Of a stretch of DNA of 64,000 bases, positions 24,004-52,681 are shown in pieces. The stretch covers positions 2,272,001 through 2,336,000 of the forward strand of contig OZ241744.1 in assembly GCA_965200965.1 (NCBI GenBank), given 5' to 3'. The notes beneath the pieces are model-generated. The model was not told the origin of the DNA. It searched no databases and worked only from the letters and a program-made list of their open reading frames with translations. Every line of letters begins with the position of its first letter. Position 1 is the stretch's first letter. Both the position numbers and the translations under genes were made by a program. Origin of the DNA: an uncultured Candidatus Binatia bacterium. GTDB taxonomy: Bacteria > Desulfobacterota > Binatia > Bin18.

Positions 24004-24057
24004 CTGGACAGCGCTTCTTATCTCCGGTGAAAACAGGTTCCTGGGAGGCTCGGCAGA

Positions 24058-25170: not shown

Positions 25171-25184
25171 GAGCCGCTTTTCTC

Positions 25185-26594: not shown

Positions 26595-27643
26595 CGAATG
26601 CAGGCACAACAGATCTTCACCAACCTGCGGATGGAGCGGTCGACATCTGCATTTTCTTCGACACGGTCAATCTACCCGGGGGCGGAGGAAACCAGTTTCT
26701 AAGGAGTCTCGCGTCCGAGTTTACTTGCTTGGGTCATAGAGTCACAAACCGGCCTGCGCCGGAAACCCAGGTGATTTTGGTCAATGGCTTCAACTATGGC
26801 ATAAACAGGCATTTGCGCCCCGGCCAAGTCGCCCAAATGAGGCAGACGGGAAAAATGACACCGCTGGGAAGAGTGCTCCCTTCATGGCTGTACAGGCCGC
26901 GCAAGCGAAAGGGGCCTGTCCTGATTCACCGGGTTGACGGAGTGCCTGAACTGGTGCGTGGACACAGGAGCAGGGCGGACCGGGTCCAGCCGGCGGTGAA
27001 TCGCTTGACCGACTGCACGATTTTCCAGACCGGGTATTGCGTGACGAGTTTTGCCGAGCACGCTGCGGTCGCCCCCTCAAAGTGGTGTATCATCAAGAAC
27101 GGTGTTGACCCGAGGGTGTTTTACCCGGACCCGAATAACACATGGAGCGCAGGCCGGCTTCGTCTTGTAGCGGTCTCCTGGTCATCAAATTCCCGCAAGG
27201 GCTTCGCTACCCTGGCCGATGTATCACGTCTGCCGGGTGTGGAGTTGAGGTTCGTGGGCAACTGGTGTCCTGACATTCCCCATGCGAATGTGAAGCTAGC
27301 CGGTACGCTACGGTCTCAAGACCTTGCTGAGGTCCTGCGTTCTTCCCATGCTATGATCCACGCCGCATGGAACGAACCCTGTTCCAACGCCATCGTGGAG
27401 GCAATGGCGTGCGGTCTTCCTGTCATTTACCGCGATTCCGGGGGCAACCGGGAACTGGCGGGTGAGTATGGGACACCGATAACCGAAAACCTGCCAAGTG
27501 TGCTGGACAATCTGAGGAACCGCTACATTGGCTTACGCTCCAAAGTGTTGCAAGATAGAGATGCCTTCCTCATTACCCGAGCCGCGAAAGAATATGTGGG
27601 GGTGTTCCAGCACGCAATATGCCACAGGAGACAATTCAAATGA
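26591..27643 (+). CDS. glycosyltransferase family 4
   Basis: GGGNQF, IKNGVD and EPCSNAIVEAMACGLPVI motifs; ATGA overlap. Confidence 0.88.
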   Translation: MTNAGTTDLHQPADGAVDICIFFDTVNLPGGGGNQFLRSLASEFTCLGHRVTNRPAPETQVILVNGFNYGINRHLRPGQVAQMRQTGKMTPLGRVLPSWLYRPRKRKGPVLIHRVDGVPELVRGHRSRADRVQPAVNRLTDCTIFQTGYCVTSFAEHAAVAPSKWCIIKNGVDPRVFYPDPNNTWSAGRLRLVAVSWSSNSRKGFATLADVSRLPGVELRFVGNWCPDIPHANVKLAGTLRSQDLAEVLRSSHAMIHAAWNEPCSNAIVEAMACGLPVIYRDSGGNRELAGEYGTPITENLPSVLDNLRNRYIGLRSKVLQDRDAFLITRAAKEYVGVFQHAICHRRQFK

Positions 27644-28362
27644 TAACACGGCTTACCGATCTGGTGATACGAAAACTGCTCGAGGCGAAGCGAGGACTGC
27701 GGTTCCTGATCTATAAGACATCCGAAGCCGATGTTATGAAAAGGTTTCATATGACGTACTATCACCAGGGGAGAGAACGCGGTCTTACTTGGAAAAAAAC
27801 CTGCTGGCTGGGTACACAGGTCCTGAAGTGTCCCTTTGATCTCTGGATATATCAAGAGATTATTCATAGAATCAAACCCGACCTTATCATCGAGACCGGC
27901 ACCTTCAAAGGAGGCTCGGCCTTGTTTATGGCTTCTATCTGTGATATCTGCGGTACAGGGCAGATAGTATCAATTGACATAAAGCCCGCTTATGAAAGAC
28001 CCAATCACGAACGGATAACATACCTAACAGGCTCCTCAACTTCTGAGTCCATCGTCACTACTGTGAAGGAGTTGGCACGAGATGCAAAAACCGTTATGGT
28101 TCTGTTGGACTCTGCCCACGAAAAGAACCATGTACTCAACGAGCTTCAGGTCTACGCTCCACTGGTAACATTGAACAGTTATCTTATAGTTGAGGATACC
28201 CATTTAAACGGCAATCCAATCCGCTCGGATTTCGGCGACGGTCCAATGGAAGCGGTTACAGAGTTTCTCCAAACCAATTCGTCTTTCAGAAAGGATCCCA
28301 TTGACCGAAAATTCCTCCTGACCTTCCATCCAGGTGGATATCTGGTTCGTGTGAAAGGATAG
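27640..28362 (+). CDS. CmcI / rhamnosyl O-methyltransferase family protein
   Basis: WLG..LKCPFDLWIYQE, IIETGT..GGSA, LDSAH and YLIVEDT motifs. Confidence 0.9.
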   Translation: MITRLTDLVIRKLLEAKRGLRFLIYKTSEADVMKRFHMTYYHQGRERGLTWKKTCWLGTQVLKCPFDLWIYQEIIHRIKPDLIIETGTFKGGSALFMASICDICGTGQIVSIDIKPAYERPNHERITYLTGSSTSESIVTTVKELARDAKTVMVLLDSAHEKNHVLNELQVYAPLVTLNSYLIVEDTHLNGNPIRSDFGDGPMEAVTEFLQTNSSFRKDPIDRKFLLTFHPGGYLVRVKG

Positions 28363-28364
28363 AT

Positions 28365-29468
28365 ATGCTCCGTTTTCTGAACCGGATTCTGTCGAAAAAA
28401 CCAGAGGAGGCCCGAGTCGAGATACCAGTACAAATAGCCGTCATCGGCTTAGGTGCCATGGGACAACGGAATTTGAGACATATCAAGAAGTCTCACAATT
28501 TCCGTTTAGTCGGTGTTCAGGACCTGAGAAGAGAGGTTGCGGAAACAATCGCACGAAGCTCCAGAGTCAAAGCCTATGATGATATTGACTCCTGTTTAGA
28601 CGACTCAGAGAGTGAAGCGATATTCGTATGTACCCCACATCACCTTTTGGCTGACATGGGGCTGAAAGTTTTAGAATCTGGTAAGCATTTGCTTATAGAA
28701 AAACCAATGGCCATGAATACACGATCAGCGGATACATTGATTGAATCAAGCAGGGAACGGGATCTCTTGATATCGGTAAATTACTCGAGGGTCTTTACCG
28801 ATGCCCTTCGTTCAGCCAGGCATTTAATCGAGTCAGGGGCTGTGGGGAATTTGATAGGTGTGGAAACGAGGTGGAATGGGTATAAATCCATCGGTTATTA
28901 CTATGGATCACGCAGCCCGGTGCCTGACGACTGGCGTCTCAATAAAAGCAAATCAGGTGGAGGTATGCTGATGATGACCACTTGCCACGCCTTACACTAT
29001 GTACCACATATTACTGGTGCCAGAGCTGAAACAGCATCTGCTCTGATTCCCTCCTATTCTCCGTTCCTGACGGACATCGAGGATACAGTACAGGGGATAC
29101 TGAAGTTCGAAGATGGTGCGGTCTGGACAATTTTGACTTCAAGCAGTCAGAGAGGAACACAGATAAATGACACCACGATTTGGGGGGGCAACGGAACAAT
29201 CGTAGTGAATAATGATCGAGTTCGATATTATTCAACGCGAATTATAAATGGTAAAAGGCCAGGTATCTGGCATGTCAACAAGACCCCTGATTCTGAGATT
29301 TATTTTGACCGTTGGTTGGACAACACCGCGCTTGCCATCAGACAAGGCAGACCTTTGGAAATAAGTCCAGAAAGCGCTCGAGAGACTCTGGCTGTCATTG
29401 AAGCACTCTATCGTAGTGCTGGATCGAGGTCTCTGGTCACGGTTGGCAGAACGAGTACAGACATATGA
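28365..29468 (+). CDS. Gfo/Idh/MocA oxidoreductase
   Basis: GLGAMG, TPHHL, HLLIEKPMA and SGGG motifs. Confidence 0.9.
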   Translation: MLRFLNRILSKKPEEARVEIPVQIAVIGLGAMGQRNLRHIKKSHNFRLVGVQDLRREVAETIARSSRVKAYDDIDSCLDDSESEAIFVCTPHHLLADMGLKVLESGKHLLIEKPMAMNTRSADTLIESSRERDLLISVNYSRVFTDALRSARHLIESGAVGNLIGVETRWNGYKSIGYYYGSRSPVPDDWRLNKSKSGGGMLMMTTCHALHYVPHITGARAETASALIPSYSPFLTDIEDTVQGILKFEDGAVWTILTSSSQRGTQINDTTIWGGNGTIVVNNDRVRYYSTRIINGKRPGIWHVNKTPDSEIYFDRWLDNTALAIRQGRPLEISPESARETLAVIEALYRSAGSRSLVTVGRTSTDI

Positions 29469-30118
29469 AGGAACATAATTCCTTAGTCGAATCAATTAAT
29501 TTGAGTGGAATCTCATCTTCTTTCAGCAAAGAAATTATTCGGATATCGTTGTGGAATAACGGATTCTCCGGTGAGTTTTTTGTGAACTTTGATTGTGGAG
29601 AGAGCGAATTGTCCAGGATACAGCCTCCTCCAGGCTATGAGAGTACACTGTGGGGGGTCTACTTGATTGCAATGCATTTGGCTGACCAGGCTCAACTGAA
29701 TCTGGGCTACTCTGTTGCGGTCGAGGGATCCCATCTGATCGATGATGCGATCAGGACTCTCTTGAGTTGTCAAAAGAGTATCAGGATAGTGTCTTCAGGA
29801 AGAGAAAACGGACTATCTGTAGATACATTTATTGGGTGTTCGCTCCCTGCTTTGGCGAGGGTACTACCGACAATGTCCAGGTATGGAATGATATTCTTAC
29901 CATGCAGTAATTTTTCTGACGCTCAAAATCTCAATATCTATTCTACCATTCATCGAAATGGCCTTAGAGTATACGCCGCGAAGCTTGGATATAACATGAT
30001 ACACCAGCTCCCCAAATTGAATCAAAGACTCCAGAGACTGATGACGAGATGTGGGCATCTGTCTATCGTATTTCAGAAACAGAGATCAAACCCTGAAACG
30101 AGGTGGCATCTTGAGTAG
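29465..30118 (+). CDS. hypothetical protein
   Basis: 217 aa ORF overlapping both neighbours in the operon; no family recognised. Confidence 0.5.
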   Translation: MKEHNSLVESINLSGISSSFSKEIIRISLWNNGFSGEFFVNFDCGESELSRIQPPPGYESTLWGVYLIAMHLADQAQLNLGYSVAVEGSHLIDDAIRTLLSCQKSIRIVSSGRENGLSVDTFIGCSLPALARVLPTMSRYGMIFLPCSNFSDAQNLNIYSTIHRNGLRVYAAKLGYNMIHQLPKLNQRLQRLMTRCGHLSIVFQKQRSNPETRWHLE

Positions 30119-31043
30119 CGAAAAGATCGAAATCAACCTCATTTTGGGAAACCATATTACCAACATCGGTAATGCCTTTCTTGATATGGGCTCAGAGATG
30201 TCACTATCTCTAGCATATCCGAATGCAGCAATTCGTAAGTCCTCTTCTTTTCCTGTATGGTTTGGAGATCAACGCAAAAACAGAAGGTACCTCAAACACG
30301 ATCTCTTTACTCTTGCAGATAAAATACCATGCAGCTTTGCAGTCTTTTCTGGAATGGTAGTAACAGAGAGATTTATCAGGCGTTATGGTACCCTGATACG
30401 GTTGCTGAGAAAACGCGGGGCAAGAATCATACTAAACGGAGCGGGTCCAGTATTTTATTCCAGCGGTGAGGCAGCGGAAGTAATTGCTTTTTGGCGCAGA
30501 TACGGTCTCTATGGTCTCGTATCCAGGGACAGATATACATTCGAAACGTACAAGAACATGGCTGAACATGCCTACGATGGTATTGATTGCGGATTTTTCT
30601 TGAGTGACGCTTTTATTCCGGTAGTTTTGGATGTAGAATCATTCAATATATTAACTTTTGACAGCATGCGTGAACCAGATGCTCTTGGGTCGCGGATGGC
30701 CGTGCGTCCTCATCATAAACTGTACCCTCCTCCTGATAAGAGGACCCTTCGGAGTATGAACAAGAAAAATTGGCTCTTCTCCGAGCAGGTATCAGATATT
30801 CTCAACGTGTACGCTAACGCCAAGGAAGTCTACTCAGACCGAGTCCATGCATGTGTAGCCGCTGCTTCATTCGGTAAGCCCTTCCAACTTTATTCGGATT
30901 CGAAAAGGGCACTTCTTTTTGAGAGACTCGGCGTTTCCCTGAAAGAATTGCGCCACCATTTGGTAAAAGTAGATGAGGAGAGACTTCAAAAAGAAAAAGA
31001 TGATCAGGTAGGATACCTTAAAAGCATACTGATTACACAATGA
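30111..31043 (+). CDS. polysaccharide pyruvyltransferase family protein
   Basis: NIGN, SRD..T, D.GF and SDRVHA...GKP motifs; TTG start after GAGGTG. Confidence 0.75.
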   Translation: MSSEKIEINLILGNHITNIGNAFLDMGSEMSLSLAYPNAAIRKSSSFPVWFGDQRKNRRYLKHDLFTLADKIPCSFAVFSGMVVTERFIRRYGTLIRLLRKRGARIILNGAGPVFYSSGEAAEVIAFWRRYGLYGLVSRDRYTFETYKNMAEHAYDGIDCGFFLSDAFIPVVLDVESFNILTFDSMREPDALGSRMAVRPHHKLYPPPDKRTLRSMNKKNWLFSEQVSDILNVYANAKEVYSDRVHACVAAASFGKPFQLYSDSKRALLFERLGVSLKELRHHLVKVDEERLQKEKDDQVGYLKSILITQ

Positions 31044-31060
31044 TATCTCGAATGAGGTGA

Positions 31061-32173
31061 GTGATGCGATTTGAACAATTTCTCAAAGTGCTGGGACGCC
31101 AGTTCCCTGAGCGGTATCATGCCAACCTGCGAAGAACATATGAAATACAGAGAGAAGTCATACAATCACTGATGATTCACCGTATGCCACGCATGGGGTG
31201 CCGGGTAGTTTTTAGAGATTATGAAATAGCGGACCTGGAAAGATATCTTTGTCGAGGTCCGGGCCCTGATGAGATCATGGTCAAGGTCCTCTTCTCAGCT
31301 ATAAGCGTAGGGACCGAAAGAGCCGTTCTCCTCGGTTTACCTAATGCTACTCGAGCAATGCCTTTCTATCCTGGCTATTCGGGATGCGGAATAGTGATTG
31401 CAACAGGGAAAAAGGTACATGAAATTCAACCAGGAGATTTGATTGCCGGACGGCTGAGCCACAACTCATATACTGTGGTGAGTCCTTCTCAACTCGTCTC
31501 CTTCAAAGGCGACCAGTTCTCTCCTGCAATGTCCCTCATTGAACTGGGATGCATTGTGCAACAGGCAATGCGCAAATCACAGACTCAGTTGGGCGAACAT
31601 GTGGCAATTGTGGGCACTGGCTTACTGGGGCAGATGGCTGCGATTTATGCCCATCATCTGGGAGCCGGTCGCATAACCTTGATAGGCAGAAGTGAGCGTA
31701 GGAGAACCAGAACAGACGATCTGCCAGTGGAACATGATTATGTCACAGCAGCTGACGTTGATGCCACCGACGAGATTAAGAAATTAGGAGCGGACGTTGT
31801 GATTGAGGCTGCCGGAACTGCCCCTGCGTTGATTGTCGCCATTGAGGCTGCTGGACGGGAGGGCAGAATCGTAAATCTTGGGAGCACCAGGGATTATATC
31901 AATGCTGCTGACTTTGTAAGTCACCTGACTCGGAAGAGTGCATTCCTGATCGGAGCACACATTTCGACAATCGACAATATGAAAAGCTCACCTGATGCAT
32001 GGACACACGGAAAAGAGCGTGAACTGTTTCGTCGTCTGGTTACGGAGGGGAAATTTGAAGGTCTCCCACACGACACCATGCAGGTAGAAAGACGGGAAAA
32101 TATCAATATCCTGTATGAGGATATTATCCGAAGACAGAGAAAATCCGGGGTCATGCTTCTTGCCTGGAAATGA
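31061..32173 (+). CDS. MDR-family dehydrogenase lacking the catalytic zinc Cys
   Basis: SAISVGTE, PGYSGCG, GTGLLG and DVVIEAAG motifs. Confidence 0.8.
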   Translation: MMRFEQFLKVLGRQFPERYHANLRRTYEIQREVIQSLMIHRMPRMGCRVVFRDYEIADLERYLCRGPGPDEIMVKVLFSAISVGTERAVLLGLPNATRAMPFYPGYSGCGIVIATGKKVHEIQPGDLIAGRLSHNSYTVVSPSQLVSFKGDQFSPAMSLIELGCIVQQAMRKSQTQLGEHVAIVGTGLLGQMAAIYAHHLGAGRITLIGRSERRRTRTDDLPVEHDYVTAADVDATDEIKKLGADVVIEAAGTAPALIVAIEAAGREGRIVNLGSTRDYINAADFVSHLTRKSAFLIGAHISTIDNMKSSPDAWTHGKERELFRRLVTEGKFEGLPHDTMQVERRENINILYEDIIRRQRKSGVMLLAWK

Positions 32174-32174
32174 T

Positions 32175-33401
32175 ATGACAGACTCTTCCAATCCCAGAAT
32201 ACTCTTCCTTTCCAGCAGCTTCCTGCCGACAATCGGGGGACTTCAGTACGAGTTGAAATGGTTTCTTGATAACCTGGACAGGCGTTTGAGTGAACGCGGT
32301 GACATGCAGGTTCATTTTGCCTATCCGAACGAAGACTCCGAGCCCTACACGCATTTCAACCACATCTCGACACACGACTTGCAGCTGAGCGACCTGCGCA
32401 AGCCCACAGTGGCGTGGATGCTCAGCAGGTTGGGAAGACTCCTGAGAAGGATCAGACCCGACATAGTTCACTGTCATGGAATACTGCCCGACGGTCTGTG
32501 GGTTCTTCTGGCAAGCCGGCTGTTTCAAGTCCGAACGAAAATCGTAGTGAGCTCTCACGGACAGGATATCGTATGGCTGCCCCAATGGCACTATGGCTTG
32601 CGGCAATCCATACGGGCGAGGTTTCTCGCCAGACAGGTAGCCAGGCGGATATCCGCCCATGTGCTGCCCAGCCGCGCTCTCCTTGGCTTTGCCCTTGAGG
32701 CCGGTACCCCGAAGAAGAACATCACCATCATCCCCAATGGTATTCCCGTTGGTCCGGACTACGACTTTGAGCAGGATTCTCCAGGGTATCCATTCAAGCC
32801 CGAGTGTGATACCGCTGACCTGCGTCAGGGCGACGGCCTCAACATTCTCTCCCTCTCCAGTGCGCGGGAGATCAAGAATCTCGACGCCTTGATTGAGGCA
32901 TTCGCCCTGGTCAAGCCCAAACTTGGCAGTTCAAAATTACTGCTGGCATGTGATAATCCAGCGGCTCAGCGAATTGTCCGGCTGGTCAAAGACAGAGGGC
33001 TGAGCCAACAAGTCGTGTTCATCGGAACGGTTACAGGGCCAAGCAAGCATTCCTGCATTCGCGCCAGTGATATCTACTGTCTGCCATCGTATTTTGAGAA
33101 TTGTCCTCTTTCTCTACTTGAAGCCATGAAGTTTGAGACCGCTGTTCTGGCCACCAGGGCCGGTGGTATCCCGGAGTTCGTTGAAGACGGAAAAAACGGC
33201 CTGCTGGTATTCCCCACAGATAGAGAGGGAATGGCGGCAGCCCTGGTAAGACTGCACAGAGATGCCGGCCTGCGAAGGCGGCTCATAAGAAATGGCTTAC
33301 AGACCGTCAAGCGCTATTCAATTTCTCGCACAATCGAAGCACATCTCGCGCTCTATCTGCGTCTCTGTCATTCCGAAGTCAGCGAGGGTTTGACAGCGTG
33401 A
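32175..33401 (+). CDS. glycosyltransferase family 4
   Basis: PTIGG, PDIVHCH, IPNG and ENCPLSLLEAM motifs. Confidence 0.88.
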   Translation: MTDSSNPRILFLSSSFLPTIGGLQYELKWFLDNLDRRLSERGDMQVHFAYPNEDSEPYTHFNHISTHDLQLSDLRKPTVAWMLSRLGRLLRRIRPDIVHCHGILPDGLWVLLASRLFQVRTKIVVSSHGQDIVWLPQWHYGLRQSIRARFLARQVARRISAHVLPSRALLGFALEAGTPKKNITIIPNGIPVGPDYDFEQDSPGYPFKPECDTADLRQGDGLNILSLSSAREIKNLDALIEAFALVKPKLGSSKLLLACDNPAAQRIVRLVKDRGLSQQVVFIGTVTGPSKHSCIRASDIYCLPSYFENCPLSLLEAMKFETAVLATRAGGIPEFVEDGKNGLLVFPTDREGMAAALVRLHRDAGLRRRLIRNGLQTVKRYSISRTIEAHLALYLRLCHSEVSEGLTA

Positions 33402-34282
33402 CACTTCCAGCCGGCACGAGCGTCACGCCATTCGAGCGGAAAAGAGCCGAACTGCACACCGGCGACCTGTCCGAAGCCTGGTATCGGCACGCTGCAAAAA
33501 CTCTCAGAGGCGGAGACGGCGGCGAACACGGCATCCTGCTCTACAAGCTGCTGCACCAACGCTCTGACTCCGGTCATCCCCTGGTCATTCTGGATATCGG
33601 CACAGCCAGAGGTTTCTCCGCCCTCACACTGGCCCGCGCTCTGCTTGACACAAATATCAGCGGGCATGTGTATAGCGTGGATATCATCGCCCATCACCAA
33701 GCGCGCAACTGGCACGGGGACAAACACCGGGCTGATGAACCGCTGGCCGGACTCGAAATAAGCCGCTCGGAAATCTGGAACAGGTGGTTCCCGGCTGAAG
33801 CTGCCAGGGTAACGGCTCTCACCGCTCAATCTGCGGATGTTCTGGACAAGTGGGAGCGTGGGCCTGTTGATATTGCCTTCCTGGACGGCCGTCATACCCG
33901 CGCCAATGTGAAGAAGGAGTTAGCCCTGTTGGACCCGCTGAGCCGGGAAGGGGGCATCATCGTGCTCGATGATTACCACCTTGGGGTGAGCGCCGTCCAT
34001 ATCCGCTCCCGACTGCTCAACCTCATCGCCCATGCCCTGGCAAAGGCGCTGCCTCCGGCTGGCAAACTCCGCCCCGGTCTTGGGAAAGACAACGAGTTTG
34101 TCGTTGTCAAGCAAAGATTTTCCGGCATCCGCCACGCGGTCAGGGAGTTTCTCGAAGAGCGACAAGGCCGGTGGGCGCTCGAGATCATACCCATGCCGAC
34201 CCGCGGAGAGTATCAGGGCGACGACTATGCGCTGGCCCTCCTTACCCGGACACAGCAGACGGAAGGCCGTGCAATCCCATGA
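33398..34282 (+). CDS. class I SAM-dependent methyltransferase (Methyltransf_24-like)
   Basis: LDIGTARGFS, DIAFLDGRH and GGIIVLDD motifs. Confidence 0.82.
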   Translation: MTLPAGTSVTPFERKRAELHTGDLSEAWYRHAAKTLRGGDGGEHGILLYKLLHQRSDSGHPLVILDIGTARGFSALTLARALLDTNISGHVYSVDIIAHHQARNWHGDKHRADEPLAGLEISRSEIWNRWFPAEAARVTALTAQSADVLDKWERGPVDIAFLDGRHTRANVKKELALLDPLSREGGIIVLDDYHLGVSAVHIRSRLLNLIAHALAKALPPAGKLRPGLGKDNEFVVVKQRFSGIRHAVREFLEERQGRWALEIIPMPTRGEYQGDDYALALLTRTQQTEGRAIP

Positions 34283-35610
34283 GCCTTCGAGACACAATCG
34301 CTGACAGGCAAGCCGTCGTGGCGATAGCCGGGTTGGGCTATGTCGGGCTGCCTTTGGCCGTGGCGTTTGCCGAAGCTGGCTTTGTGGTCCGTGGCATAGA
34401 CACAGCGCCAGAAAAGGTGCGTCTGCTCAACGCTGGCCGCTCACCTGTCCACGATGTCCCTTCGGAGACGATTGAGAAACTCGCAGGCGGCAGGAACGCC
34501 AGGCTGGCCGTGGGAGATGATTACGACATGGTGAATCAGGCGGATGTGGCCATTGTGTGCGTGCCAACTCCGCTGAACAAAACCAGGGAGCCGGACATTT
34601 CGCATATCATTGCCACCGTGGAGGCCCTGTCGCCACGACTGCACGCAGATATGCTGGTCGTAGTGGAGAGCACCTCCTATCCCGGGTCAACCGAAGAACT
34701 CGTCCTGCCCCGCCTGCTGGCCGGCACTCCGAAGCCTCTCGATATCGGCCGGAATTTCTTTGTCGCTTTTTCACCCGAACGGCTTGACCCTGGACAGCAT
34801 AGATGGAATCTTGCCAACACTCCGAAAGTGCTTGGTGGAATCACCGCAGAATGCACCCAAGTCGCAACCGTCCTGTACAGCGCTATCGTCGAGAAGGTTA
34901 TTCCGGTCTCCTCTTCCAGGACGGCTGAAATGGTCAAGCTGCTGGAGAATACTTTTCGGGCTGTGAACATTGCACTGGCCAACGAAACAGCCCTCATATG
35001 CAACAGGCTGGGAATAGATGTCTGGGAAGTTATCGAATCGGCCAGCACCAAGCCCTTTGGCTATATGCCCTTCCATCCCGGCCCCGGCCTTGGCGGGCAC
35101 TGCATTCCCGTTGACCCCCGGTATCTGGCCTGGAGACTGAAAAGCCTGGATTACACCGCACGATTCATCCAGTGTGCCGAAGAGGTCAACTCCTCAATGC
35201 CACGCTATGTTCTCGAACGCATAAGCGACACGCTGAACGATGAAGCCAAAGCGCTGAGAGGATCGCAGGTGTTGATCCTGGGCGTCGCCTATAAACCAGA
35301 TGTCAGCGACACCCGAGAGTCTCCCGCCCTGGCCCTGATCCATCTCCTGATGCAAAAAGGAGCCGCGGTGATGTACCATGACCCCTTCGTCCCCGATCTG
35401 CGGGAAGACGGTCTCGACATGCACAGCCTGGAAACGCCGGGACAGCCTGCGTTGGATGATGCCCTGGCGGCTGCCGACTGTGTGGTGATCGTCACCAACC
35501 ACAGCGCCTATGACTGGGAAAAAATTGTCCGAAACAGCCGCAGAATTGTCGATACCCGCAATGCAACCAAGGGCGTGACCTCGAATGCAGGAAAAGTGAC
35601 TAAGATCTAG
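34279..35610 (+). CDS. nucleotide-sugar 6-dehydrogenase (UDP-GlcNAc/ManNAc dehydrogenase, WbpA/WecC-like)
   Basis: GLGYVGLP, CVPTP, ESTSYPG, SPER and GGHCIPVDP motifs. Confidence 0.93.
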   Translation: MSLRDTIADRQAVVAIAGLGYVGLPLAVAFAEAGFVVRGIDTAPEKVRLLNAGRSPVHDVPSETIEKLAGGRNARLAVGDDYDMVNQADVAIVCVPTPLNKTREPDISHIIATVEALSPRLHADMLVVVESTSYPGSTEELVLPRLLAGTPKPLDIGRNFFVAFSPERLDPGQHRWNLANTPKVLGGITAECTQVATVLYSAIVEKVIPVSSSRTAEMVKLLENTFRAVNIALANETALICNRLGIDVWEVIESASTKPFGYMPFHPGPGLGGHCIPVDPRYLAWRLKSLDYTARFIQCAEEVNSSMPRYVLERISDTLNDEAKALRGSQVLILGVAYKPDVSDTRESPALALIHLLMQKGAAVMYHDPFVPDLREDGLDMHSLETPGQPALDDALAAADCVVIVTNHSAYDWEKIVRNSRRIVDTRNATKGVTSNAGKVTKI

Positions 35611-35613
35611 GCC

Positions 35614-36735
35614 ATGCGCCTCGTGTACACTGCCCCCAGATACCACACCAACCAGCACTTCATCGCCAAAGCGCTTCTGGACGCCGGGCATAGCGTGTCA
35701 TTTCTGGTACTGCGGCAAGGGCCAAGCGAGACCTATGAAGCTCTGACCCCGACCGTCCTGGGCTGCTGGCCGGCTTTTGACACAATCCGGCGTCTGGCGG
35801 CCACATGCCCCGGCGTCAGCCTCAGCGACACCGGCGGGCTGCCGTCGCCCCTCAAGTTCTGGTGCGCCATGCGAAGCCTGCGCCCCTCGGCAGTGGTCGC
35901 CCGCGACCCCTTCTCCGCCTATGGCCTGCTCTCCGTACTGGTGACAAAGCTCATCGGTGCGCGGCTGGTCCTCTCCATCCAGACGCCACAACACCGCCGA
36001 CTGAGGTGGTGGAAACGCGCCCTCCTCACCCTCGTCCGGCGCATCACCGGAGCCGAATGGATGACGCCGGTACTCGGCTCGCCCGAGCAAGACAAACCGG
36101 CGCAGACCCCCTTGCACTATGTGCCCTTCGTCATGCCGCCGCAGACCGCCCCAGACGACAAGCAGTGGTTTGCCGGCGGAGTGGTGAAGGTGCTGGCAAT
36201 CGGCAAATTCGAGCCACGCAAGAACCATCGCCTGTTCCTGGAAGCCATCCGCCGGCTCTCACACCGCCACGCGGTCCGGGCCACAATCATCGGCGAATGC
36301 TCCACCCAGGCGCATCAGTGTGAACTGGAGGCCGTCAAGCGGCACTGCACACGCCTGGGTCTGGACGATGTGCTTGAGTTCGCCCTGAACCTGCCGTTTT
36401 CCGAGGTCCAGCGACGCTATGCCGAGCATGACATATTCGTCCTCGCCAGCCGCGACGAGTGGGCGGCCATCTCGCCTCTTGAAGCGATGGCGCACTCCCT
36501 GCCCGTGGTGTGCAGCGACTCGAACGGCACCCAATACTGCATCCAGCCTGGGGAGAACGGTTTTGTGTTCCGCACCAACGACCTTGACGATCTGGAAGCG
36601 TGTCTGCTCAGGCTGCTCAGCGACCGCAAGAGGCTGGTGGCAATGGGACGCCGCAGCTACCAACTCGTCGTCTCTGAGCACACGCCCGGACGCTATGTGG
36701 AAACGCTCATGGCACTGGTCGGGGTGCCTCGGTGA
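35614..36735 (+). CDS. glycosyltransferase family 4
   Basis: GKFEPRKN and EWAAISPLEAMAHSLPVV motifs. Confidence 0.85.
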   Translation: MRLVYTAPRYHTNQHFIAKALLDAGHSVSFLVLRQGPSETYEALTPTVLGCWPAFDTIRRLAATCPGVSLSDTGGLPSPLKFWCAMRSLRPSAVVARDPFSAYGLLSVLVTKLIGARLVLSIQTPQHRRLRWWKRALLTLVRRITGAEWMTPVLGSPEQDKPAQTPLHYVPFVMPPQTAPDDKQWFAGGVVKVLAIGKFEPRKNHRLFLEAIRRLSHRHAVRATIIGECSTQAHQCELEAVKRHCTRLGLDDVLEFALNLPFSEVQRRYAEHDIFVLASRDEWAAISPLEAMAHSLPVVCSDSNGTQYCIQPGENGFVFRTNDLDDLEACLLRLLSDRKRLVAMGRRSYQLVVSEHTPGRYVETLMALVGVPR

Positions 36736-37826
36736 GCAGACGGATAGCACTGTTTCTGCCGTCCCTCGAAGGCGGCGGCGCAGAGCGGGCCATGCTGGAT
36801 ATTGCCACAGGGCTTGCCCAGGCCGGCCAGCCGGTAGACCTGCTGCTTGTCAAGGCTCACGGCCCCTATCTCGATCTGCTCCCCGAGGGCGTGTGTCTCA
36901 TAGACTTGAACGCCAGGCGCGCGCTGACAGCCCTCCTCCCGCTGCTCCGCTACCTGCGGCGCGAGCACCCCCGCGTCCTTATTGCCACCTTGCCCCACGC
37001 CAACGTCATTGCGCTTCTTGCCAAGAGGTTCTGCGCCGGACGGCTTCCAGTGATAGCCCGGCGGGCAAGTACCTTTACGCCGGAGTATACCCACGCCGGT
37101 TTCAAGGACCGGATGACGCTCAGGCTGGAGAAATATCTCCTGCCCTCCGCCAACGCAGTGGTGGCACTCTCGCACGAGATGGCTGACGACCTCAAGTGCA
37201 GCGTGCCCCGCGTTGCCCCTCTCATACAGATCATCTACAATCCTGTGGTGTGGCCTGACCATACCGACAAGGCAGGAATGCCGGTGAACCATCCCTGGTT
37301 TGGCGAAGACCTGCCGGTGATCCTGTCTGTCGGACGCCTGGCAGCGGTGAAGGGTCACGCGACATTGCTCAGGGCCTTTGCCGAGCTGCTGCAATCCCGC
37401 CCCGCCCGCCTGGTCGTACTCGGCGAAGGCCCTGAGCGGCGCAGCCTGATGGACCTCGCCCAAAACCTGGCAATCGCCCACGCCGTTGACTTCCCCGGAT
37501 TCCAGCCCAACCCCTTTGCCTATATGGCTGAGGCCAGCGTGGTCGTGCTCTCTTCCAGTTATGAGGGATTCCCCAATACGCTTGTTCAAGCAATGGCCTG
37601 CGGAACGCCGGTGGTCAGCACCAACTGCCCCAGCGGTCCCGGTGAGATACTGGAAGACGGACAATGGGGACGCCTCGTGCCGGTTGACGACCCACCTGCG
37701 CTGGCAAAGGCAATGCTCGACACCCTGGACAGTCCCGTTGAACCACGCTGGCTGGTCGCCAGAGCCAGGACCTACTCCGCCCAAGCCTCAATTGACCGCT
37801 ACCTGAAGCTCATCGCCACCTGCTGA
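36732..37826 (+). CDS. glycosyltransferase family 4
   Basis: GGGAER, IYNP, VGRL..KG and EGFPNTLVQAMACGTPVV motifs. Confidence 0.9.
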   Translation: MSRRIALFLPSLEGGGAERAMLDIATGLAQAGQPVDLLLVKAHGPYLDLLPEGVCLIDLNARRALTALLPLLRYLRREHPRVLIATLPHANVIALLAKRFCAGRLPVIARRASTFTPEYTHAGFKDRMTLRLEKYLLPSANAVVALSHEMADDLKCSVPRVAPLIQIIYNPVVWPDHTDKAGMPVNHPWFGEDLPVILSVGRLAAVKGHATLLRAFAELLQSRPARLVVLGEGPERRSLMDLAQNLAIAHAVDFPGFQPNPFAYMAEASVVVLSSSYEGFPNTLVQAMACGTPVVSTNCPSGPGEILEDGQWGRLVPVDDPPALAKAMLDTLDSPVEPRWLVARARTYSAQASIDRYLKLIATC

Positions 37827-37848
37827 AAACCGCCTTCCAGATCAATAC

Positions 37849-38586
37849 ATGTTACGTTATGTCAATAAGCCCGCCACCCTGGCAGGGTTCATCAAATATG
37901 CCGGGAGAGCATTTGCCCGCAGAGTATTCGGGCTTGATGTGCGCACTGCTGCCTCCCGCCGGTATGACCTGCACGGCTTCGAGTATCATTACAAATACCT
38001 CAGCCGGTTCATGCACTTCGAGAAATTGCTCGCCGATATCAAGCCTCTCACCGGAAGTATCGTCGAATGCGGTGTAGGTCCTGGGCGGTCTCTCTTCGAT
38101 TTTGCTGTCATATCAATCCTCCACAACACACCCAGACACATTATCGGGTTCGATACCTTCTGCGGTATTCCCGACGCAACGCCACAGGATGGGAAATGGA
38201 ACGCTCATATAAGAGGAACCTGGAGCTATCCCGTGGATCATGTGCGTGAAAATCTCCTGCTTGCCGGATTGGAGGAAGAGTTCATTCGGACCAACATCAC
38301 GCTTATTCCGGGGGAGTTCAGCCAATCGCTGCCTGCTTACAAGATGGAAGGCGGGATCGCCTTCCTGCATATTGATGTAGACCTGTACGAATCCTACAGG
38401 ACGGTCCTGGAACATCTCTATGACCATGTTGTGCCAGGTGGTATCACCGCGTTTGACGAGTATGGCTTGGCTGCCTAGCCCGGAGCAACGAGGGCGATCG
38501 ATGAATTCTTTGAAGAGAGGCCAGAGAAGGTGCTCAATTCCCCGGTGACGGAGAGGTACTGGTATACACGAAAGGGCGGCGGATGA
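37849..38586 (+). pseudogene. TylF/MycF/NovP-type O-methyltransferase with in-frame TAG at 38476-38478
   Basis: GSIVECGV, GFDTF.G, LHIDVDLYES, GG...FDEY; reading continues *PGATRAIDEFF to TGA 38586, which overlaps the next ATG. Confidence 0.8.
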
Positions 38587-40967
38587 TGTTTGTACGCCAT
38601 GCGGCGCACCCGCATATGACAGGGGTGATATTCGCCCTGCTCGTGGCGACCATCTTCGCCCATGTCTGGTTCGGGAGCGCTCCCCTGCCGTTTGGCGGGC
38701 CGAACGTCATCCTCGCCGCCCTCGCTGTCATCCTGTCGCTGGCCCATGTCATGTCGCGCACACTCCGGCTCGACACACCCTCAGCCCTCATCCACGCCCT
38801 CATCAGGGACTTCCGCCCGGTCCTTCCGATCATGGCGGTATCGCTGCTCCTCCTCCTCTGGGCCTTGGCCGTCTATCTCTTCACCGACACACTCAGGCCA
38901 ACGCGGCTCGCCACGATGGGAATGGGTATCGGCCTCCTGTTTGCCGTCTATCTGTCCGTGGACAGCGTTTACAGAGCCACACTCATGGTGCTGGCGATCA
39001 GTATGGCAACCGCTGTATCCACCCTGTTCGGTATGGCCGTCACCTTTCTGGGAGACCCCTTCCTGACTCTCTGGGTGCAGATTGCCACCGTCAATGAGCA
39101 GCGCCTGTATACCATTCTGACCGAGGGCAGAACAGCCGGACTGAGCCCGGATACGGTTGCCCTGAGCTATCAACTTGCCATCGCCCTCCCCCTGGCCTTC
39201 GCCGCTTTCCTGTCCAATCTGTTCGGGCACGGCACAGCGTCCAGAATGACCCGTCGTGTTATCAGATCGACCGGAAGGCGACACGCTGGGTCCTCGATGA
39301 TCAGCCTCATGCTCTATGCCGCAGTGGCGATCATGGTCATTGGCATAACCGTGAATGCCACGCGCTCGGCGATCTGCGGCGTCCTGGTCGGCGCTGTCAT
39401 CATTGTCCTGCTGTCCCCGAGAAACCCGCAGATTTGGAGACGCCTGCTGTTTCTTGTCCCCTTGATTCCACTCTGGCTGCTCGTATTTTCCGATACCGCT
39501 CTCACCACCGCCGGCCCGACCATCGCCGGCCTTGCCCGTGCCGGTCCCGCCAACGGCACCCGCCACACCTTTGCCGGCCTGACCCCAGAGGAGGTCTACA
39601 CCGTCCAACTCCGCGTCCGTGACACCCAGGGCTACGGCCCGCCCAGCCCCGAACTGGCCGCTATCCCCAAACCCGACGGCAGCCTCGGCCTGACTTGGCA
39701 GGACCCCACCGAGCCCCCGACCCGCTACCAGTTCCGGCTTCGGACGGCGGACGCTTGGTGGCCCTGGCTGAGCTTCGAGCCAACCCCGAGTTCTGACGCG
39801 CCTTCCAGGCTCAACGGTCAAGGCCCGTCTGTCAATGGCCTCGCCGTTATTGGGCTCGCCGCTGCCAGCGACCACCCCCGCCAGGGCCATACCTTTGCCG
39901 GCCTGACCCCCGGCGAGGGCTATACCATCCAACTCCGCGTCCGTGACACCCAGGGCTACGGCCCGCCCAGCCCCGAACTGACCACTACCGCGGGGCGATA
40001 CGGCAGCTTCGTATTCACCTGGCAGGACCCTGCCGAGCCCCCGACCGGCTATCAGTTCAGGATCCGCCGGGCGAACACCACGGCCTGGTTCCCTTGGCAG
40101 ACTTTTGAACCTGACCTGAGCAGTCAAGGCCCGACCATCGCCGGTCTCGCTTCCCGCACCACCAGAGCCGACCCCAGCCACACGCTTACCAGCCTGGCTC
40201 CAGGGGAGAGGTATTTCGTCCAGCTTCGCGCCCGGAACGACACGGTCTACGGCCCGCCCAGTGCCACCCTGACCGCCATATCGGACCGTGTCGGCCACCT
40301 TAGACTCACCTGGCAGGACCCTGCCGACCTCCCGACCGGCTATCAGTTCCGGATCCGCCGGGCGAACACCACGGCCTGGTGGCCCTGGCAGACCTTCGAG
40401 ACCGCCCGTCAACCCAGCAGGGACAAACTCATCGCCGAGGCGCGAGCTGCTCTTCACAATGTTGAGGGATCATCACATCTGGGGGCGAATCTCCACAGCT
40501 TTTCTCACACAGCAACACGAGCCCGCATCCCCATAACAATCATGGCATTCCGACACGCCCTGGCCTACCCACTTGGAACCGGTCATTACTGGCCAAGCCT
40601 GTCATACCTCCCCGCGGGGCTGACCGCCCCAATGGTAAACTGGATTTTCACTCGTCATAGTCCGCATAACCAGTTTCTCGTCATTCTGGTCTACTACGGG
40701 TTTCCCGGCCTGATCTTGCTGATCCTGTTCTATGCGCTTGTGTCACGCTCGCTCCTGCACTCCGGAACATTGCTCATACGTTCGCCCGATACAGCCCTCT
40801 CTTTCCTCCTCGCCGCCCTTACTGGTGCGCTGGCCGGCTACGGCATCAACAGTCTCCTGCATAATACAGGGCCGTTCGTCGGTGACTGGTATCACTTCTT
40901 CCTGATCGGGCTGGCGTTCAGCCTCGGACGCATCGCCGCCTCTCGTCAAGCGAACGATCAGGAGTGA
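38583..40967 (+). CDS. O-antigen ligase/polymerase-like membrane protein with three FN3-like repeats inserted
   Basis: Many TM helices; RTAGL and NATRSA motifs; after the insert R..I, PLGTG and SPHNQFL..LVYYGFPG (Wzy_C/WaaL-like); repeats at 39513-40400. Confidence 0.8.
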   Translation: MMFVRHAAHPHMTGVIFALLVATIFAHVWFGSAPLPFGGPNVILAALAVILSLAHVMSRTLRLDTPSALIHALIRDFRPVLPIMAVSLLLLLWALAVYLFTDTLRPTRLATMGMGIGLLFAVYLSVDSVYRATLMVLAISMATAVSTLFGMAVTFLGDPFLTLWVQIATVNEQRLYTILTEGRTAGLSPDTVALSYQLAIALPLAFAAFLSNLFGHGTASRMTRRVIRSTGRRHAGSSMISLMLYAAVAIMVIGITVNATRSAICGVLVGAVIIVLLSPRNPQIWRRLLFLVPLIPLWLLVFSDTALTTAGPTIAGLARAGPANGTRHTFAGLTPEEVYTVQLRVRDTQGYGPPSPELAAIPKPDGSLGLTWQDPTEPPTRYQFRLRTADAWWPWLSFEPTPSSDAPSRLNGQGPSVNGLAVIGLAAASDHPRQGHTFAGLTPGEGYTIQLRVRDTQGYGPPSPELTTTAGRYGSFVFTWQDPAEPPTGYQFRIRRANTTAWFPWQTFEPDLSSQGPTIAGLASRTTRADPSHTLTSLAPGERYFVQLRARNDTVYGPPSATLTAISDRVGHLRLTWQDPADLPTGYQFRIRRANTTAWWPWQTFETARQPSRDKLIAEARAALHNVEGSSHLGANLHSFSHTATRARIPITIMAFRHALAYPLGTGHYWPSLSYLPAGLTAPMVNWIFTRHSPHNQFLVILVYYGFPGLILLILFYALVSRSLLHSGTLLIRSPDTALSFLLAALTGALAGYGINSLLHNTGPFVGDWYHFFLIGLAFSLGRIAASRQANDQE
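39246..39294 (+). repeat. 49-bp palindromic (REP-like) element, copy 1, inside a CDS
   Basis: atgacccgt-cgtgttatcagatcgaccggaaggcgacacg-ctgggtcct. Confidence 0.75.
39513..40400 (+). repeat. three tandem ~100-codon FN3-like repeats
   Basis: Units start at 39513, 39822 and 40128; shared GP.(I/V).GL...HT..GL.P.E.Y.(V/I)QLR.R...YGPPS...TWQDP...PT.YQFR.R...W.PW..FE. Confidence 0.85.
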
Positions 40968-41007
40968 ACGTGTCATCAGATCGGAGGAAGGCGACACCTT
41001 CACTCCT
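40960..41007 (+). repeat. palindromic (REP-like) element, copy 2, overlapping the ligase stop codon
   Basis: aggagtgaa-cgtgtcatcagatcggaggaaggcgacacc-ttcactcct. Confidence 0.75.
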
Positions 41008-41019
41008 CCTGTTACAGCC

Positions 41020-42180
41020 GTGAGCACACTCAAGCCCGTCTCACCGCCGCCTCAGGCCGAAGCGAAGCATCCGACAATGGTGCTGCTGGTCTCACCGCTT
41101 CCGCCGCCACCCGGAGGGATGGAAACCTGGACGCAGACCTTGTGCCAACGTGGCTTACCCGCTCCCTTCAATTTTGAACTTGTTGACACCAGAGCGTTCC
41201 GCGGGCCTCGAGCCGCACCGCCACAACTGAATCTGACCGAGATCAGGCGCAACCTGCGAATCCTGAGCCGCATCTATCGCGCGCTGGCTTCCGGGCGCTT
41301 TTCCCTCATGCATCTCAACTGTTTTCTGACGCTCAGCGGTGCGCCCCGCAACCTGGCCTCGGCTCTGATTGCCAGGCGGGCCGGCGTACCATACATCGTC
41401 CATCTGCACGGGACCTTCACCCTTCCTCCCGGCAGGCATCCCACCGCACGCTTCTATCGCTGGGCCTACCGCAGCATATTCGCCGGTGCAGCCCGGATTC
41501 TGGCCTTAGGCCGGCCAAGCTGCCGTGCCATCCTGGAGTTGGGCGACTTCGCCCACAAAACCTGCCCGCTCATGCCGAACTTCGTAGATTTCCGCACCAT
41601 CCCCGAACGCCTCCCCAAGACCGGGCCTCAGCAGCCCGTGCGGGTCATCTTTACCGGTGCGCTGATTGAAGCCAAAGGTGTACACACGATTGTCGAAATC
41701 GCCCGCCGCCTGCCGGCCGCGCGTTTTCAACTCGTGGGCGACGCTCCAGATGAATCCCGCGCCCGCCTCCTGCGGCATATCCGCCAACACGGCCTCGAAG
41801 GCCGGGTGCAGGTCCTCGGCCCGGTGACACACCGCGAAGTCCTCGGGATGCTGGCGGCAAGCGATGTCTTCCTGTTTCCGTCCAAATATGAAGGCTTCCC
41901 GCTCAGCGTGGCCGAGGCAATGGCCGTCGGTCTGCCGGTCGTCGCCTCTTCTGTGGGTGCGCTGCCGGAGATGATTGACGTTCCCCAAGGCGGCTGGCTG
42001 GCCCCTTCCGAAGACATAGCCGATTATGCTAAGATGCTGGTCCGTTTATGCAATGAGCCGGCGTTGAGAAATCGCATGGGACGCTACAACAGACACAAAG
42101 CCGGGCAGGAATATGAGTACGATGTCGTAGTTCGGCGACTGTGCGATATGTACGCGCGCATTCCGTTGGTGCACCCCTGA
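41020..42180 (+). CDS. glycosyltransferase family 4
   Basis: PPPGGMETW, HLHG, KG and EGFPLSVAEAMAVGLPVV motifs. Confidence 0.9.
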   Translation: MSTLKPVSPPPQAEAKHPTMVLLVSPLPPPPGGMETWTQTLCQRGLPAPFNFELVDTRAFRGPRAAPPQLNLTEIRRNLRILSRIYRALASGRFSLMHLNCFLTLSGAPRNLASALIARRAGVPYIVHLHGTFTLPPGRHPTARFYRWAYRSIFAGAARILALGRPSCRAILELGDFAHKTCPLMPNFVDFRTIPERLPKTGPQQPVRVIFTGALIEAKGVHTIVEIARRLPAARFQLVGDAPDESRARLLRHIRQHGLEGRVQVLGPVTHREVLGMLAASDVFLFPSKYEGFPLSVAEAMAVGLPVVASSVGALPEMIDVPQGGWLAPSEDIADYAKMLVRLCNEPALRNRMGRYNRHKAGQEYEYDVVVRRLCDMYARIPLVHP

Positions 42181-42193
42181 TTCCGCCACCCCC

Positions 42194-43159
42194 GTGAACA
42201 TGCACAAGGTATCGGTCATCATCCCGGCAAAGAACGCCGAGGCCACCCTTCCCGCTACCCTCGCTTCGGTGTTCAGCCAGGACTACCGCGGCCCCATTGA
42301 AGTGATCGTCGCCGACGGCTCAGACACCTCGGCCACCGCGGACCTGCTCTGCCGGCGTTATCCGCAAGTGCTGAGAGTGCCGAACCCGGAACATATCACC
42401 CCGACTGGCCTCAACTCTGCGTTACAGACGGCCACAGGAAAAATTGTTGTGCGTTGCGACAGCGCCTCCGTGCTGCCGCCACACTATGTACGCCAAGCCG
42501 TCGCTACACTCGAACGAACAGGTGCCGCCAATGTCGGCGGCCAGCAGTGTCCCGTCGGGACGAGCATGTTTGAACGGGCGGTGGGGCTGGCGACCACCAC
42601 ATTTCTGGGGACGGGAGGGGCCCGCTACCGCCTGGGGGGCCCTGAGGGCCCAATCGATACCGTCTACCTTGGCGTCTGGTATCGAAAGACGCTCGAAAAC
42701 CTGCAAGGATTTGATCCGGTGATGTTCATCAACGAGGACTATGAACTCAACTGGCGGCTGCGCCAGCAAAGAGAAACCGTGTGGTTCGACCCTATGCTGA
42801 AGGTTTCTTACCGGCCGCGCGGCACCTTGTGGGCCTTGGCGCAGCAGTACTTCACTTACGGCCGCCAGAAGTCCAGGATGTTGAGAGAGCACCCCAGCTC
42901 CCTGCGGGCCAGGCAGCTCCCCGCGCCGCTGCTGGTGCTGGGGCTGGCGGTTTGCGCGGTGCTGGCATTGGCCGGCGCTGGCTGGGCAGCCGCGGCGCTG
43001 CCCCTGGTCTACCTGTCGGTCCTCATCGGCGGGGGGCTGGCAATCGGTGTGCGTCGCCGCGACCCTGCCGCTGTCCTCGTCCCTCTGGTGCTGGCGGCGA
43101 TTCATCTGAGTTGGGGAGTCGGCTTCTTTCTGGCGGCTCGCAAGAAGCCGACCCACTGA
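42194..43159 (+). CDS. glycosyltransferase family 2 (ExoA-like)
   Basis: VIIPAKN, ADGSD, DTVYLG and NEDYELNWRL motifs; C-terminal TM helices. Confidence 0.88.
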   Translation: MNMHKVSVIIPAKNAEATLPATLASVFSQDYRGPIEVIVADGSDTSATADLLCRRYPQVLRVPNPEHITPTGLNSALQTATGKIVVRCDSASVLPPHYVRQAVATLERTGAANVGGQQCPVGTSMFERAVGLATTTFLGTGGARYRLGGPEGPIDTVYLGVWYRKTLENLQGFDPVMFINEDYELNWRLRQQRETVWFDPMLKVSYRPRGTLWALAQQYFTYGRQKSRMLREHPSSLRARQLPAPLLVLGLAVCAVLALAGAGWAAAALPLVYLSVLIGGGLAIGVRRRDPAAVLVPLVLAAIHLSWGVGFFLAARKKPTH

Positions 43160-52632: not shown

Positions 52633-52681
52633 AGGAGTGAACGTGTCGCCGTCCGGTCGATCTGCCGACACGCTCACCCTC
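52633..52681 (-). repeat. 49-bp palindromic (REP-like) element, copy 4, intergenic, reverse orientation
   Basis: Reverse complement reads gagggtgag-cgtgtcggcagatcgaccggacggcgacacg-ttcactcct. Confidence 0.8.

Follow-up and report, generated by a model that had tools for sequence, protein, structure and literature searches.

Half-swapped FN3 units in the outer loop of a WaaL-type membrane enzyme from a Candidatus Binatia bacterium

How does a membrane glycosyltransferase accommodate some 300 residues of beta-sandwich between its catalytic residues, and what would it do with them? The question is raised by one gene in the window analysed here, a stretch of 64,000 nucleotides from an uncultured Candidatus Binatia bacterium (positions 2,272,001 to 2,336,000 of contig OZ241744.1, assembly GCA_965200965.1). 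Its product, P0001, is predicted to fold like the O-antigen ligase WaaL and shares its catalytic residues, and the large outer loop of P0001 holds three units related to FN3 domains in which the N- and C-terminal halves have changed places (Table 1). The architecture and the half swap are well supported, the mechanism of the enzyme moderately and the role of the units weakly.

FN3 units with their halves exchanged

By sequence the units are homologous to FN3: Pfam fn3 matches three stretches of P0001 (E 3e-22), and the three cores are 57-69% identical to one another at the amino acid level and 72-78% in DNA. In a profile built from 60 units and compared with solved FN3 domains, the N-terminal part matched C-terminal FN3 halves (residues 65-99 of 100 in FN3con, 59-97 of 108 in EphB1) and the C-terminal part matched N-terminal ones (contactin-4, 8-53), such that the canonical order A-B-C-C'-E-F-G is replaced by X-E-F-G-B-C-C', with X an extra strand. 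When the E-F-G and B-C-C' halves were located with separate hidden Markov models, the gap from G to B did not exceed 4 residues in 217 of the 219 junctions of the P0001 (ligase) family, with a median of 0, and the gap from C' to E had a median of 25; the corresponding medians for the ordinary FN3 proteins retrieved were 13 (n = 381) and 2 (n = 486), all of these counts holding duplicates between the protein and locus sets. The 13 short G-to-B junctions found outside the family are accounted for by family members that are truncated and by a single dehydrogenase, P0171. An earlier note on this sequence had claimed that the FN3 signatures stand in reversed order, and the half-profile matches and the zero G-to-B gap bear it out; the array also begins and ends on half boundaries, as that note described.

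We rejected assembly error as the source of the array, because contigs from four runs of four studies tile it with substitutions only and no joints (no one piece covers the whole), and because a cluster of 29 sequences is represented by a 97%-identical protein that likewise has 794 residues. The half swap is real.

Swapped units also occur in a second, unrelated family, the PQQ-type sugar dehydrogenases (PF07995; P0171 and, found by search from it, P0216-P0241), where one unit apiece stands at the C-terminal end, or close to it, in 27 of 28 proteins; a weak cytochrome c match is a further feature of P0171. Outside these carriers, the nearest relatives of the units are found in giant proteins of 2,000-5,000 residues with tandem FN3 domains (P0054, P0063, P0069, P0074). 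Each half of the units is homologous to its FN3 (PF00041) counterpart, and the Tyr corner, the strand-B Trp and an Arg/Gln/Trp face are shared with these giant arrays; unlike them, the units have swapped halves, have lost the 13-residue linker plus strand A between G and B, and have gained about 23 residues between C' and E. Deleting that linker plus strand A from a giant array would leave G abutting B as in the units, and we therefore suggest that the swap arose when a tandem FN3 surface-protein array lost these residues. The internal two-fold of the FN3 fold (B-E, C-F, C'-G), as stated in PMC8470474, would allow the swapped order to fold and would bring both chain ends near enough for placement inside a loop. 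The genome of P0001 itself has no donor FN3 array, its single further fn3 open reading frame (ORF) being 160 residues long; large FN3 proteins do occur in some genomes of the same genus, and in five other genomes every full-length unit match falls within ligase-family ORFs.

An alternative is that the repeats fold as ordinary FN3 domains, in a register that spans the unit borders, with one chain closing into a ring or two chains swapping halves. In its favour, Pfam fn3 aligns in register over unit borders (residues 469-564), and tandem FN3 proteins with domain-swapped central domains are on record in PMC4862688, where permuted central domains are treated as misfolds. The top couplings across 216 units, i.e., R452-Q491, Q450-R493 and Y447-I494, correspond to F-C pairing, and over 129 adjacent unit pairs co-variation was higher within a unit than in register (mutual information 0.55/0.52 vs. 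0.28 for R452-Q491 and 0.20/0.08 vs. 0.03 for Q450-R493, values uncorrected for kinship between sequences), leaving a residual in-register signal of 0.28 for 452-491. Against in-register folding, proteins with a single unit exist in both families, and because a dehydrogenase chain with one swapped unit has no second half-partner, in-register pairing within that chain is impossible. Moreover, the zero-length G-B junction cannot fit a strand A or a domain linker. Structure prediction, which the earlier note had proposed for the full protein and for one repeat, gave swapped boundaries in both models. For these reasons in-register folding was rejected, and we regard it as very improbable.

Folded alone, unit 2 is predicted as a seven-stranded beta-sandwich (predicted local distance difference test, pLDDT, 90.1; predicted template modelling score, pTM, 0.79). 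Foldseek found no match to the isolated unit at E 0.001 and fitted it poorly to canonical FN3 (template modelling score 0.31-0.46, root-mean-square deviation [rmsd] 7-11), which also speaks against an ordinary arrangement. VIA gave a best Z of 6.7; against FN3 domains it aligned six strands in order, with Z 5-5.9 and rmsd 2.5-4.1 over 71-87 residues at 6-15% identity. These fits span residues about 17-106 of the unit model and begin near strand B of the target, and from the aligned ranges we infer that their register is the rotation permitted by the FN3 two-fold. A poor match to solved structures does not, by itself, show a new fold. In the full-length model, single-domain matches cover residues 525-609, i.e., swapped unit 3, and an ESM Atlas search with the unit returned ordinary FN3 clusters (0.89-0.90).

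The seventh strand of the unit model precedes E and carries a GPTIAGLA or PSVNGLAVI motif. That it might be strand A is hinted at by its exclusion from the rotated VIA fits and by dehydrogenase P0242, in which the E-F-G part is absent and the extra strand joins strand B directly, as in ordinary FN3; the G-to-B junction has no space for a strand A. A profile test of the extra strand against strand A of the donor-type arrays did not reach significance (12 of 200 shuffles). The order is probably A-E-F-G-B-C-C', and with a seventh strand at the N-terminus the rearrangement would be a half-domain swap and not a strict circular permutation. The earlier description of the repeats as permuted FN3 holds for the reversal of the halves but probably not for the statement that a separate A strand is missing.

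Known strand-order variants resemble these units in part. The inverse Ig domain of CD19 (PMC8470474) likewise has half-domains in inverted order, permitted by the Ig/FN3 two-fold, but there the inversion comes about by folding inside a double Ig, whereas the units here are gene-encoded, stand-alone and mobile; in the same paper, stand-alone inverse Ig domains were looked for by sequence in 2021 and none was found. The type I/II circular permutation of C2 domains (PMC12051499, which covers strand-A permutations) is also a natural strand-order variant of a beta-sandwich, but it moves strand A alone, whereas in the FN3 units three strands exchange with three. A search of open-access papers that covered listings and the openings of abstracts turned up no account of either this architecture or a naturally occurring half-swapped FN3 domain, in agreement with the earlier note, which knew of no described example.

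A WaaL-type core with an exchangeable insert

In Pfam, Wzy_C matches P0001 with the C-terminal half of its profile (residues 639-714, E 1.6e-6) at 28.4 bits, below the cut-off of 31.7, although the genome search scored it above the cut-off at 32.3 bits; relatives without an insert reach 49-53.5 bits, comparable to E. coli WaaL at 50. All 22 family members scanned have a Wzy_C match, and NCBIfam gave no name to any of those scanned.

The full-length model (pLDDT 78.6, pTM 0.64) has the 12-helix WaaL fold with a long outer loop. Among 989 chains pre-ranked by Foldseek, the top VIA match was WaaL 7TPG, with Z 23.8 and rmsd 5.0 over 376 of 403 residues, and the runner-up had Z 7.7. The matches listed by Foldseek itself included FN3 tandems, with rmsd 15-25, but no ligase; the structural link to solved ligases was supplied by VIA only. 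In an eight-sequence alignment, R215, R288 and H338 of E. coli WaaL share columns with R261, R648 and H695 of P0001, and across the family these are conserved in 108 of 109, 108 of 108 and 107 of 108 sequences, respectively. P0001 thus has a WaaL-type predicted fold and catalytic residues, and the suggestion that its flanks are WaaL/Wzy_C-like is upheld by the residue alignment and the match to 7TPG. Helices 1-9 precede the insert and helices 10-12 follow the catalytic loop in the topology prediction for which the earlier note had asked; it was confirmed that three repeats split the protein after the TRS motif (R261) and before the PLGTG...PHNQ region (residues 663-697). Judged from the order of predicted helices, the insert would sit on the outer face, ahead of the helix carrying the second Arg. 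P0001 therefore resembles WaaL (CAZy GT121, clan GT-C1, PDB 7TPG, PF04932) in its 12 helices, its long outer loop near the C-terminus and its Arg/Arg/His trio; it differs in the roughly 300 extra beta-sandwich residues, in an identity of only about 15%, and in that its family occurs in hosts without LpxC.

Table 1. Positions of the features discussed (window coordinates, except for rows that give a protein or locus handle)
Feature	Position	Strand	Remark
WaaL-fold (Wzy_C) membrane glycosyltransferase P0001, 794 residues	38583..40967	+	three half-swapped FN3 units in large outer loop
Predicted transmembrane helices 1-9 (residues 11-303)	38613..39491	+	full-length model
Palindromic repeat copy, in frame inside ligase	39248..39294	+	about 16 extra residues in predicted cytoplasmic loop
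R261 of TRS motif	39363-39365	+	aligns with E. coli WaaL R215
Unit 1	39513..39779	+	extra strand, residues 311-318; loop; E-F-G-B-C-C' core, 326-399
Unit 2	39825..40109	+	extra strand, residues 415-423; core, 434-509; folded alone at pLDDT 90
Unit 3	40128..40400	+	extra strand, residues 516-523; core, 531-606
Helical catalytic part of outer loop (residues 610-696)	40410..40670	+	
R648 and H695	40524 and 40665	+	align with E. coli WaaL R288 and H338
Predicted transmembrane helices 10-12 (residues 697-793)	40671..40961	+	full-length model
Nonulosonate cytidylyltransferase-like, NeuB-like synthase, weak sialyltransferase-like gene	22422..25170	+	
Wzx-type flippase	25185..26594	+	
Four GT4s, three O-methyltransferases (CmcI-like, Methyltransf_24, TylF), pyruvyltransferase-like, UDP-sugar dehydrogenase, oxidoreductases	26594..38478	+	
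GT4 and GT2	41020..43159	+	end of cluster
Other window copies of palindromic repeat	40960-41009, 43220-43259, 52633-52676		
m2 carriers	P0051, P0052, L022:6916-9585 (-), L024:1192-3063, L025:1145-3418		about 140 residues, Cys, YARHY-like motif
m3 carriers	P0024 / L005:9785-11893; P0057 / L003:9632-12883		about 135 residues, alone or between FN3 units

The content of the loop varies. After 112 family rows were collapsed at 93% core identity, 89 relatives remained, of which 16 have no unit, 14 one, 20 two, 10 three and 29 four, so that 73, spread over five phyla, retain at least one; the repeat count proposed in the earlier note thus comes to between zero and four whole units per protein, and units are gained and lost whole. 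The insert site is a short loop without any insert in 11 of the 89 and holds another module in six, five of them without an FN3 unit: m2 in four and m3 in two, neither of which matched a Pfam family (m2 may be PPC-like). Low-complexity Pro/Ala runs are also found there in some relatives. One Latescibacterota member (L002:9398-11697) is broken into two ORFs after its sole unit, by a frameshift or a sequencing error, and another ligase with one unit (L008:9719-12835 and P0019) has a long C-terminal extension, P0019 being a ligase-GT4 fusion in that it contains GT4 Pfam families.

The 28 genome loci belong to Binatia (the nearest, at 70%), Dehalococcoidia, Latescibacterota, Bryobacterales and Gammaproteobacteria. 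These host groups are intermingled on the family tree, through which the Dehalococcoidia members are scattered at 40-50% identity; the tree is a quick version in which long branches meet, and it serves here solely for counts and patchiness. Among 41 related genomes, the family is present in three of eight from the genus of P0001 (with three, two and one unit) and in none of the other 33. Paralogues with differing unit numbers stand in tandem (L004, L006, L024) or dispersed (L014, L015, L016, L018; genome G046), and one Azotimanducaceae genome has four paralogues of four units each. In a habitat check that covered this gene only, four sponge-metagenome runs of one study each held 63-65% of its sequence words, in keeping with the sponge-symbiont setting that the earlier note had raised. 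The listing of runs that hold the gene named no RNA data set, which says nothing either way about expression. According to PMC9531527, both Binatia and Dehalococcoidia occur in sponges, sponge microbiomes are enriched in fn3, and genes are transferred across classes. Horizontal spread among sponge symbionts is likely.

A copy of a palindromic repeat lies in frame inside the ligase and is missing from P0003, a relative of 70% identity. The 47-bp repeat has about 91 copies in the genome, with stem arms that differ between copies in matched pairs, and one copy overlaps the 3' end of an ORF at 43184-43750; we presume it to be akin to REP-type or coding-inserted palindromes.

The glycan cluster and the candidate reaction

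The ligase gene lies in a co-directional glycan cluster that extends from 22422 to 43159, and the gene families at 22422-38478 agree with the nonulosonate and methyltransferase neighbourhood described before. Inside the cluster, the block from 28000 to 32000 has a GC content of 46% against about 61% for the genome and is recently acquired. Right after the cluster, a 188-residue ORF on the opposite strand (43184-43750) begins with a signal-peptide-like segment and matches neither a Pfam nor an NCBIfam family.

From these gene families, a pathway can be proposed. Glycosyltransferases, methyltransferases and NeuA/NeuB-like enzymes would assemble a methylated, nonulosonate-bearing unit on polyprenyl diphosphate, and Wzx would flip the lipid-linked unit. 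R261 and R648 would then grip the diphosphate and H695 would activate the acceptor, roles that are taken from the WaaL literature. In the outer loop, the FN3 units, each predicted to self-fold as X-E-F-G-B-C-C', precede the catalytic helices, where, in what is the weakest step, their conserved Arg/Trp face might help to dock or bind a glycan or a partner in the envelope. The reading that we prefer, with a probability of roughly 0.5, is one-step WaaL-type transfer of a short lipid-linked oligosaccharide to an acceptor other than lipid A, with the FN3 units as self-contained accessory domains; the transfer to such an acceptor, taken on its own, we put at about even odds. The acceptor is probably a surface protein or a glycolipid. 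One-step transfer is favoured over polymerisation because of the catalytic His, the scarcity of Wzz and the hosts without LpxC.

A possible alternative is that the enzyme is the Wzy polymerase of its cluster, working without a Wzz-type partner, in which case the growing chain may be steered or gauged by the FN3 units. It is the sole Wzy_C gene in a cluster that has Wzx, and Wzx occurs in seven of 20 related loci and GT4 or GT2 in 15 of 20 (among selected neighbours). Among exopolysaccharide polymerases, too, there are some with a Wzy_C match and a retained His. Speaking against polymerisation, the acceptor-activating residue is His, found at that position in 107 of 108 sequences, and not Asp or Glu; according to PMC10920833, O-antigen ligases have His where related polymerase families have Asp or Glu. 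Co-polymerases are also scarce: Wzz (PF02706) was found in one of ten genomes, the genome of P0001 being negative, and GNVR (PF13807) in none of five, with search controls positive in 8 of 14. An initiating transferase was present in five of five genomes. In addition, several genomes have two to four paralogues, some in tandem and some distant from any glycan cluster. We consider a polymerase unlikely, such that, of the three activities offered by the earlier note (ligase, polymerase or O-oligosaccharyltransferase), the first and the last are favoured and the second less so.

Another explanation is that the family consists of ordinary lipopolysaccharide (LPS) O-antigen ligases in Gram-negative hosts, which came to use other acceptors only after transfer to monoderms. 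The WaaL fold and the catalytic trio are compatible with this, as is LpxC in the genome of P0001. However, LpxC was absent from all four Dehalococcoidia hosts tested, and Dehalococcoidia members are spread through the tree rather than confined to one part of it. The genome of P0001 also has three further Wzy_C genes, one of them an ordinary WaaL-like gene beside an initiating transferase (C1:73615). Because of these hosts and of that other gene, lipid A is disfavoured as the acceptor of the family, and we hold this explanation to be quite improbable. Two long Wzy_C proteins of the same genome, at G000:C1:1179389-1181500 (704 residues) and 1128799-1130826 (676 residues), have C-terminal extensions and are possible protein O-glycosyltransferases.

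One-step transfer to a non-lipid-A acceptor would be closest to the Wzy_C O-oligosaccharyltransferases, including PglL, which share the Wzy_C motif, the same three residues (shown for PglL in PMC3643930) and, likely, one-step non-LPS transfer. P0001 differs from PglL in sitting within a glycan cluster, in lacking a PglL-specific Pfam match and in having no adjacent pilin among the ORFs scanned.

Several observations weigh against one-step transfer of this kind. A direct profile comparison (hhalign) with E. coli WaaL was not significant, sequence searches of the PDB (phmmer and profile) gave no ligase, and the equivalence of the Arg/Arg/His residues rests on a motif-level multiple alignment. 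PglL_A (PF15864) was unmatched in P0001 (E<=1) and in 22 members (E<=0.1), and no pilin or conserved secreted gene was found among the neighbours scanned, which were selected ORFs, many of them without a family. Because LpxC is present in the genome of P0001, an LPS acceptor is possible there. The co-polymerase counts come from genomes whose completeness is known only for that of P0001 (99.3%). Finally, the cluster in the window has Wzx yet no other Wzy-like gene, and Wzx with a lone Wzy-like gene is the usual signature of a polymerase.

What the units may do

Since relatives with a short loop, or with other modules at the insert site, do without them, the units are dispensable in some members of the family, and they are probably accessory domains that are not needed for catalysis. 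In eight pairs, dN/dS (the ratio of nonsynonymous to synonymous substitution rates) was 0.24-0.63 for the units, 0.23-0.49 for the enzyme core and 0.43-0.93 for the linkers, by a simple counting estimate. Thus, the units are under purifying selection like the core.

One face of the unit is conserved (Q450 80%, R452 91%, Q491 75%, R493 95%, W502 89%, W505 95%), and it is stricter than in the donor-type arrays, where position 502 is Tyr in 40%, W505 stands at 71%, R493 at 60%, and position 450 is Arg in 32%. Because R452, Q491, R493 and W505 are the commonest residues in ordinary FN3 arrays too, much of this Trp-rich face was likely inherited from the donors. Its sharing with donor arrays means that the Arg/Trp stack may be a structural clamp on the now-terminal strand C', or a putative binding site. 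Sugars outside the cytoplasm are the substrates of both host enzymes, with which glycan binding would fit. The proposal in the earlier note, that Trp-rich domains recognise an acceptor or a glycan, is hypothetical and has against it that 11 of 89 relatives do without any insert and five more hold other modules in its place, that a swapped unit also ends a sugar dehydrogenase, and that the face residues are common in ordinary arrays.

A broader version, which we offer tentatively and consider doubtful, is that the inverse FN3 domain has become a mobile recognition module of sponge symbionts, and that a conserved WaaL-type core, fitted with an interchangeable cassette of none to four units or of other modules, chooses the surface proteins or glycans to receive a host-like nonulosonate decoration. 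Alternatively, the units might be passengers, a mobile module that folds well, builds up in a loop able to tolerate it and is selected only to stay folded. The site may hold nothing, m2, m3 or Pro/Ala runs (11, 4 and 2 of 89 for the first three), copy number varies from three to one within a single genus, the ligase also tolerates an in-frame palindromic repeat, and FN3 domains are enriched in sponge microbiomes according to PMC9531527. Opposing the passenger explanation are the retention of at least one unit in 73 of 89 relatives from five phyla, the face more conserved than in donor-type arrays, and the resemblance of dN/dS to that of the enzyme core. We see it as possible, if on the unlikely side.

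If the Ig/FN3 fold is seen as built of half-domains (protodomains), inverse domains are expected to be able to fold. Here there is a natural, gene-encoded inverse FN3 that occurs in two unrelated host enzymes, in more than 200 sequence variants, and that has a plausible donor family, and for that reason its folding, stability and origin are directly testable; with chain ends that lie next to each other, it is a natural FN3 scaffold for insertion into loops. The catalytic loop of a WaaL-type enzyme, in turn, accepts inserts of folded domains that range from none at all to several hundred residues. For the bacteria that carry it, the family points to an undescribed route of surface glycosylation in five phyla, with at least some members associated with sponges.

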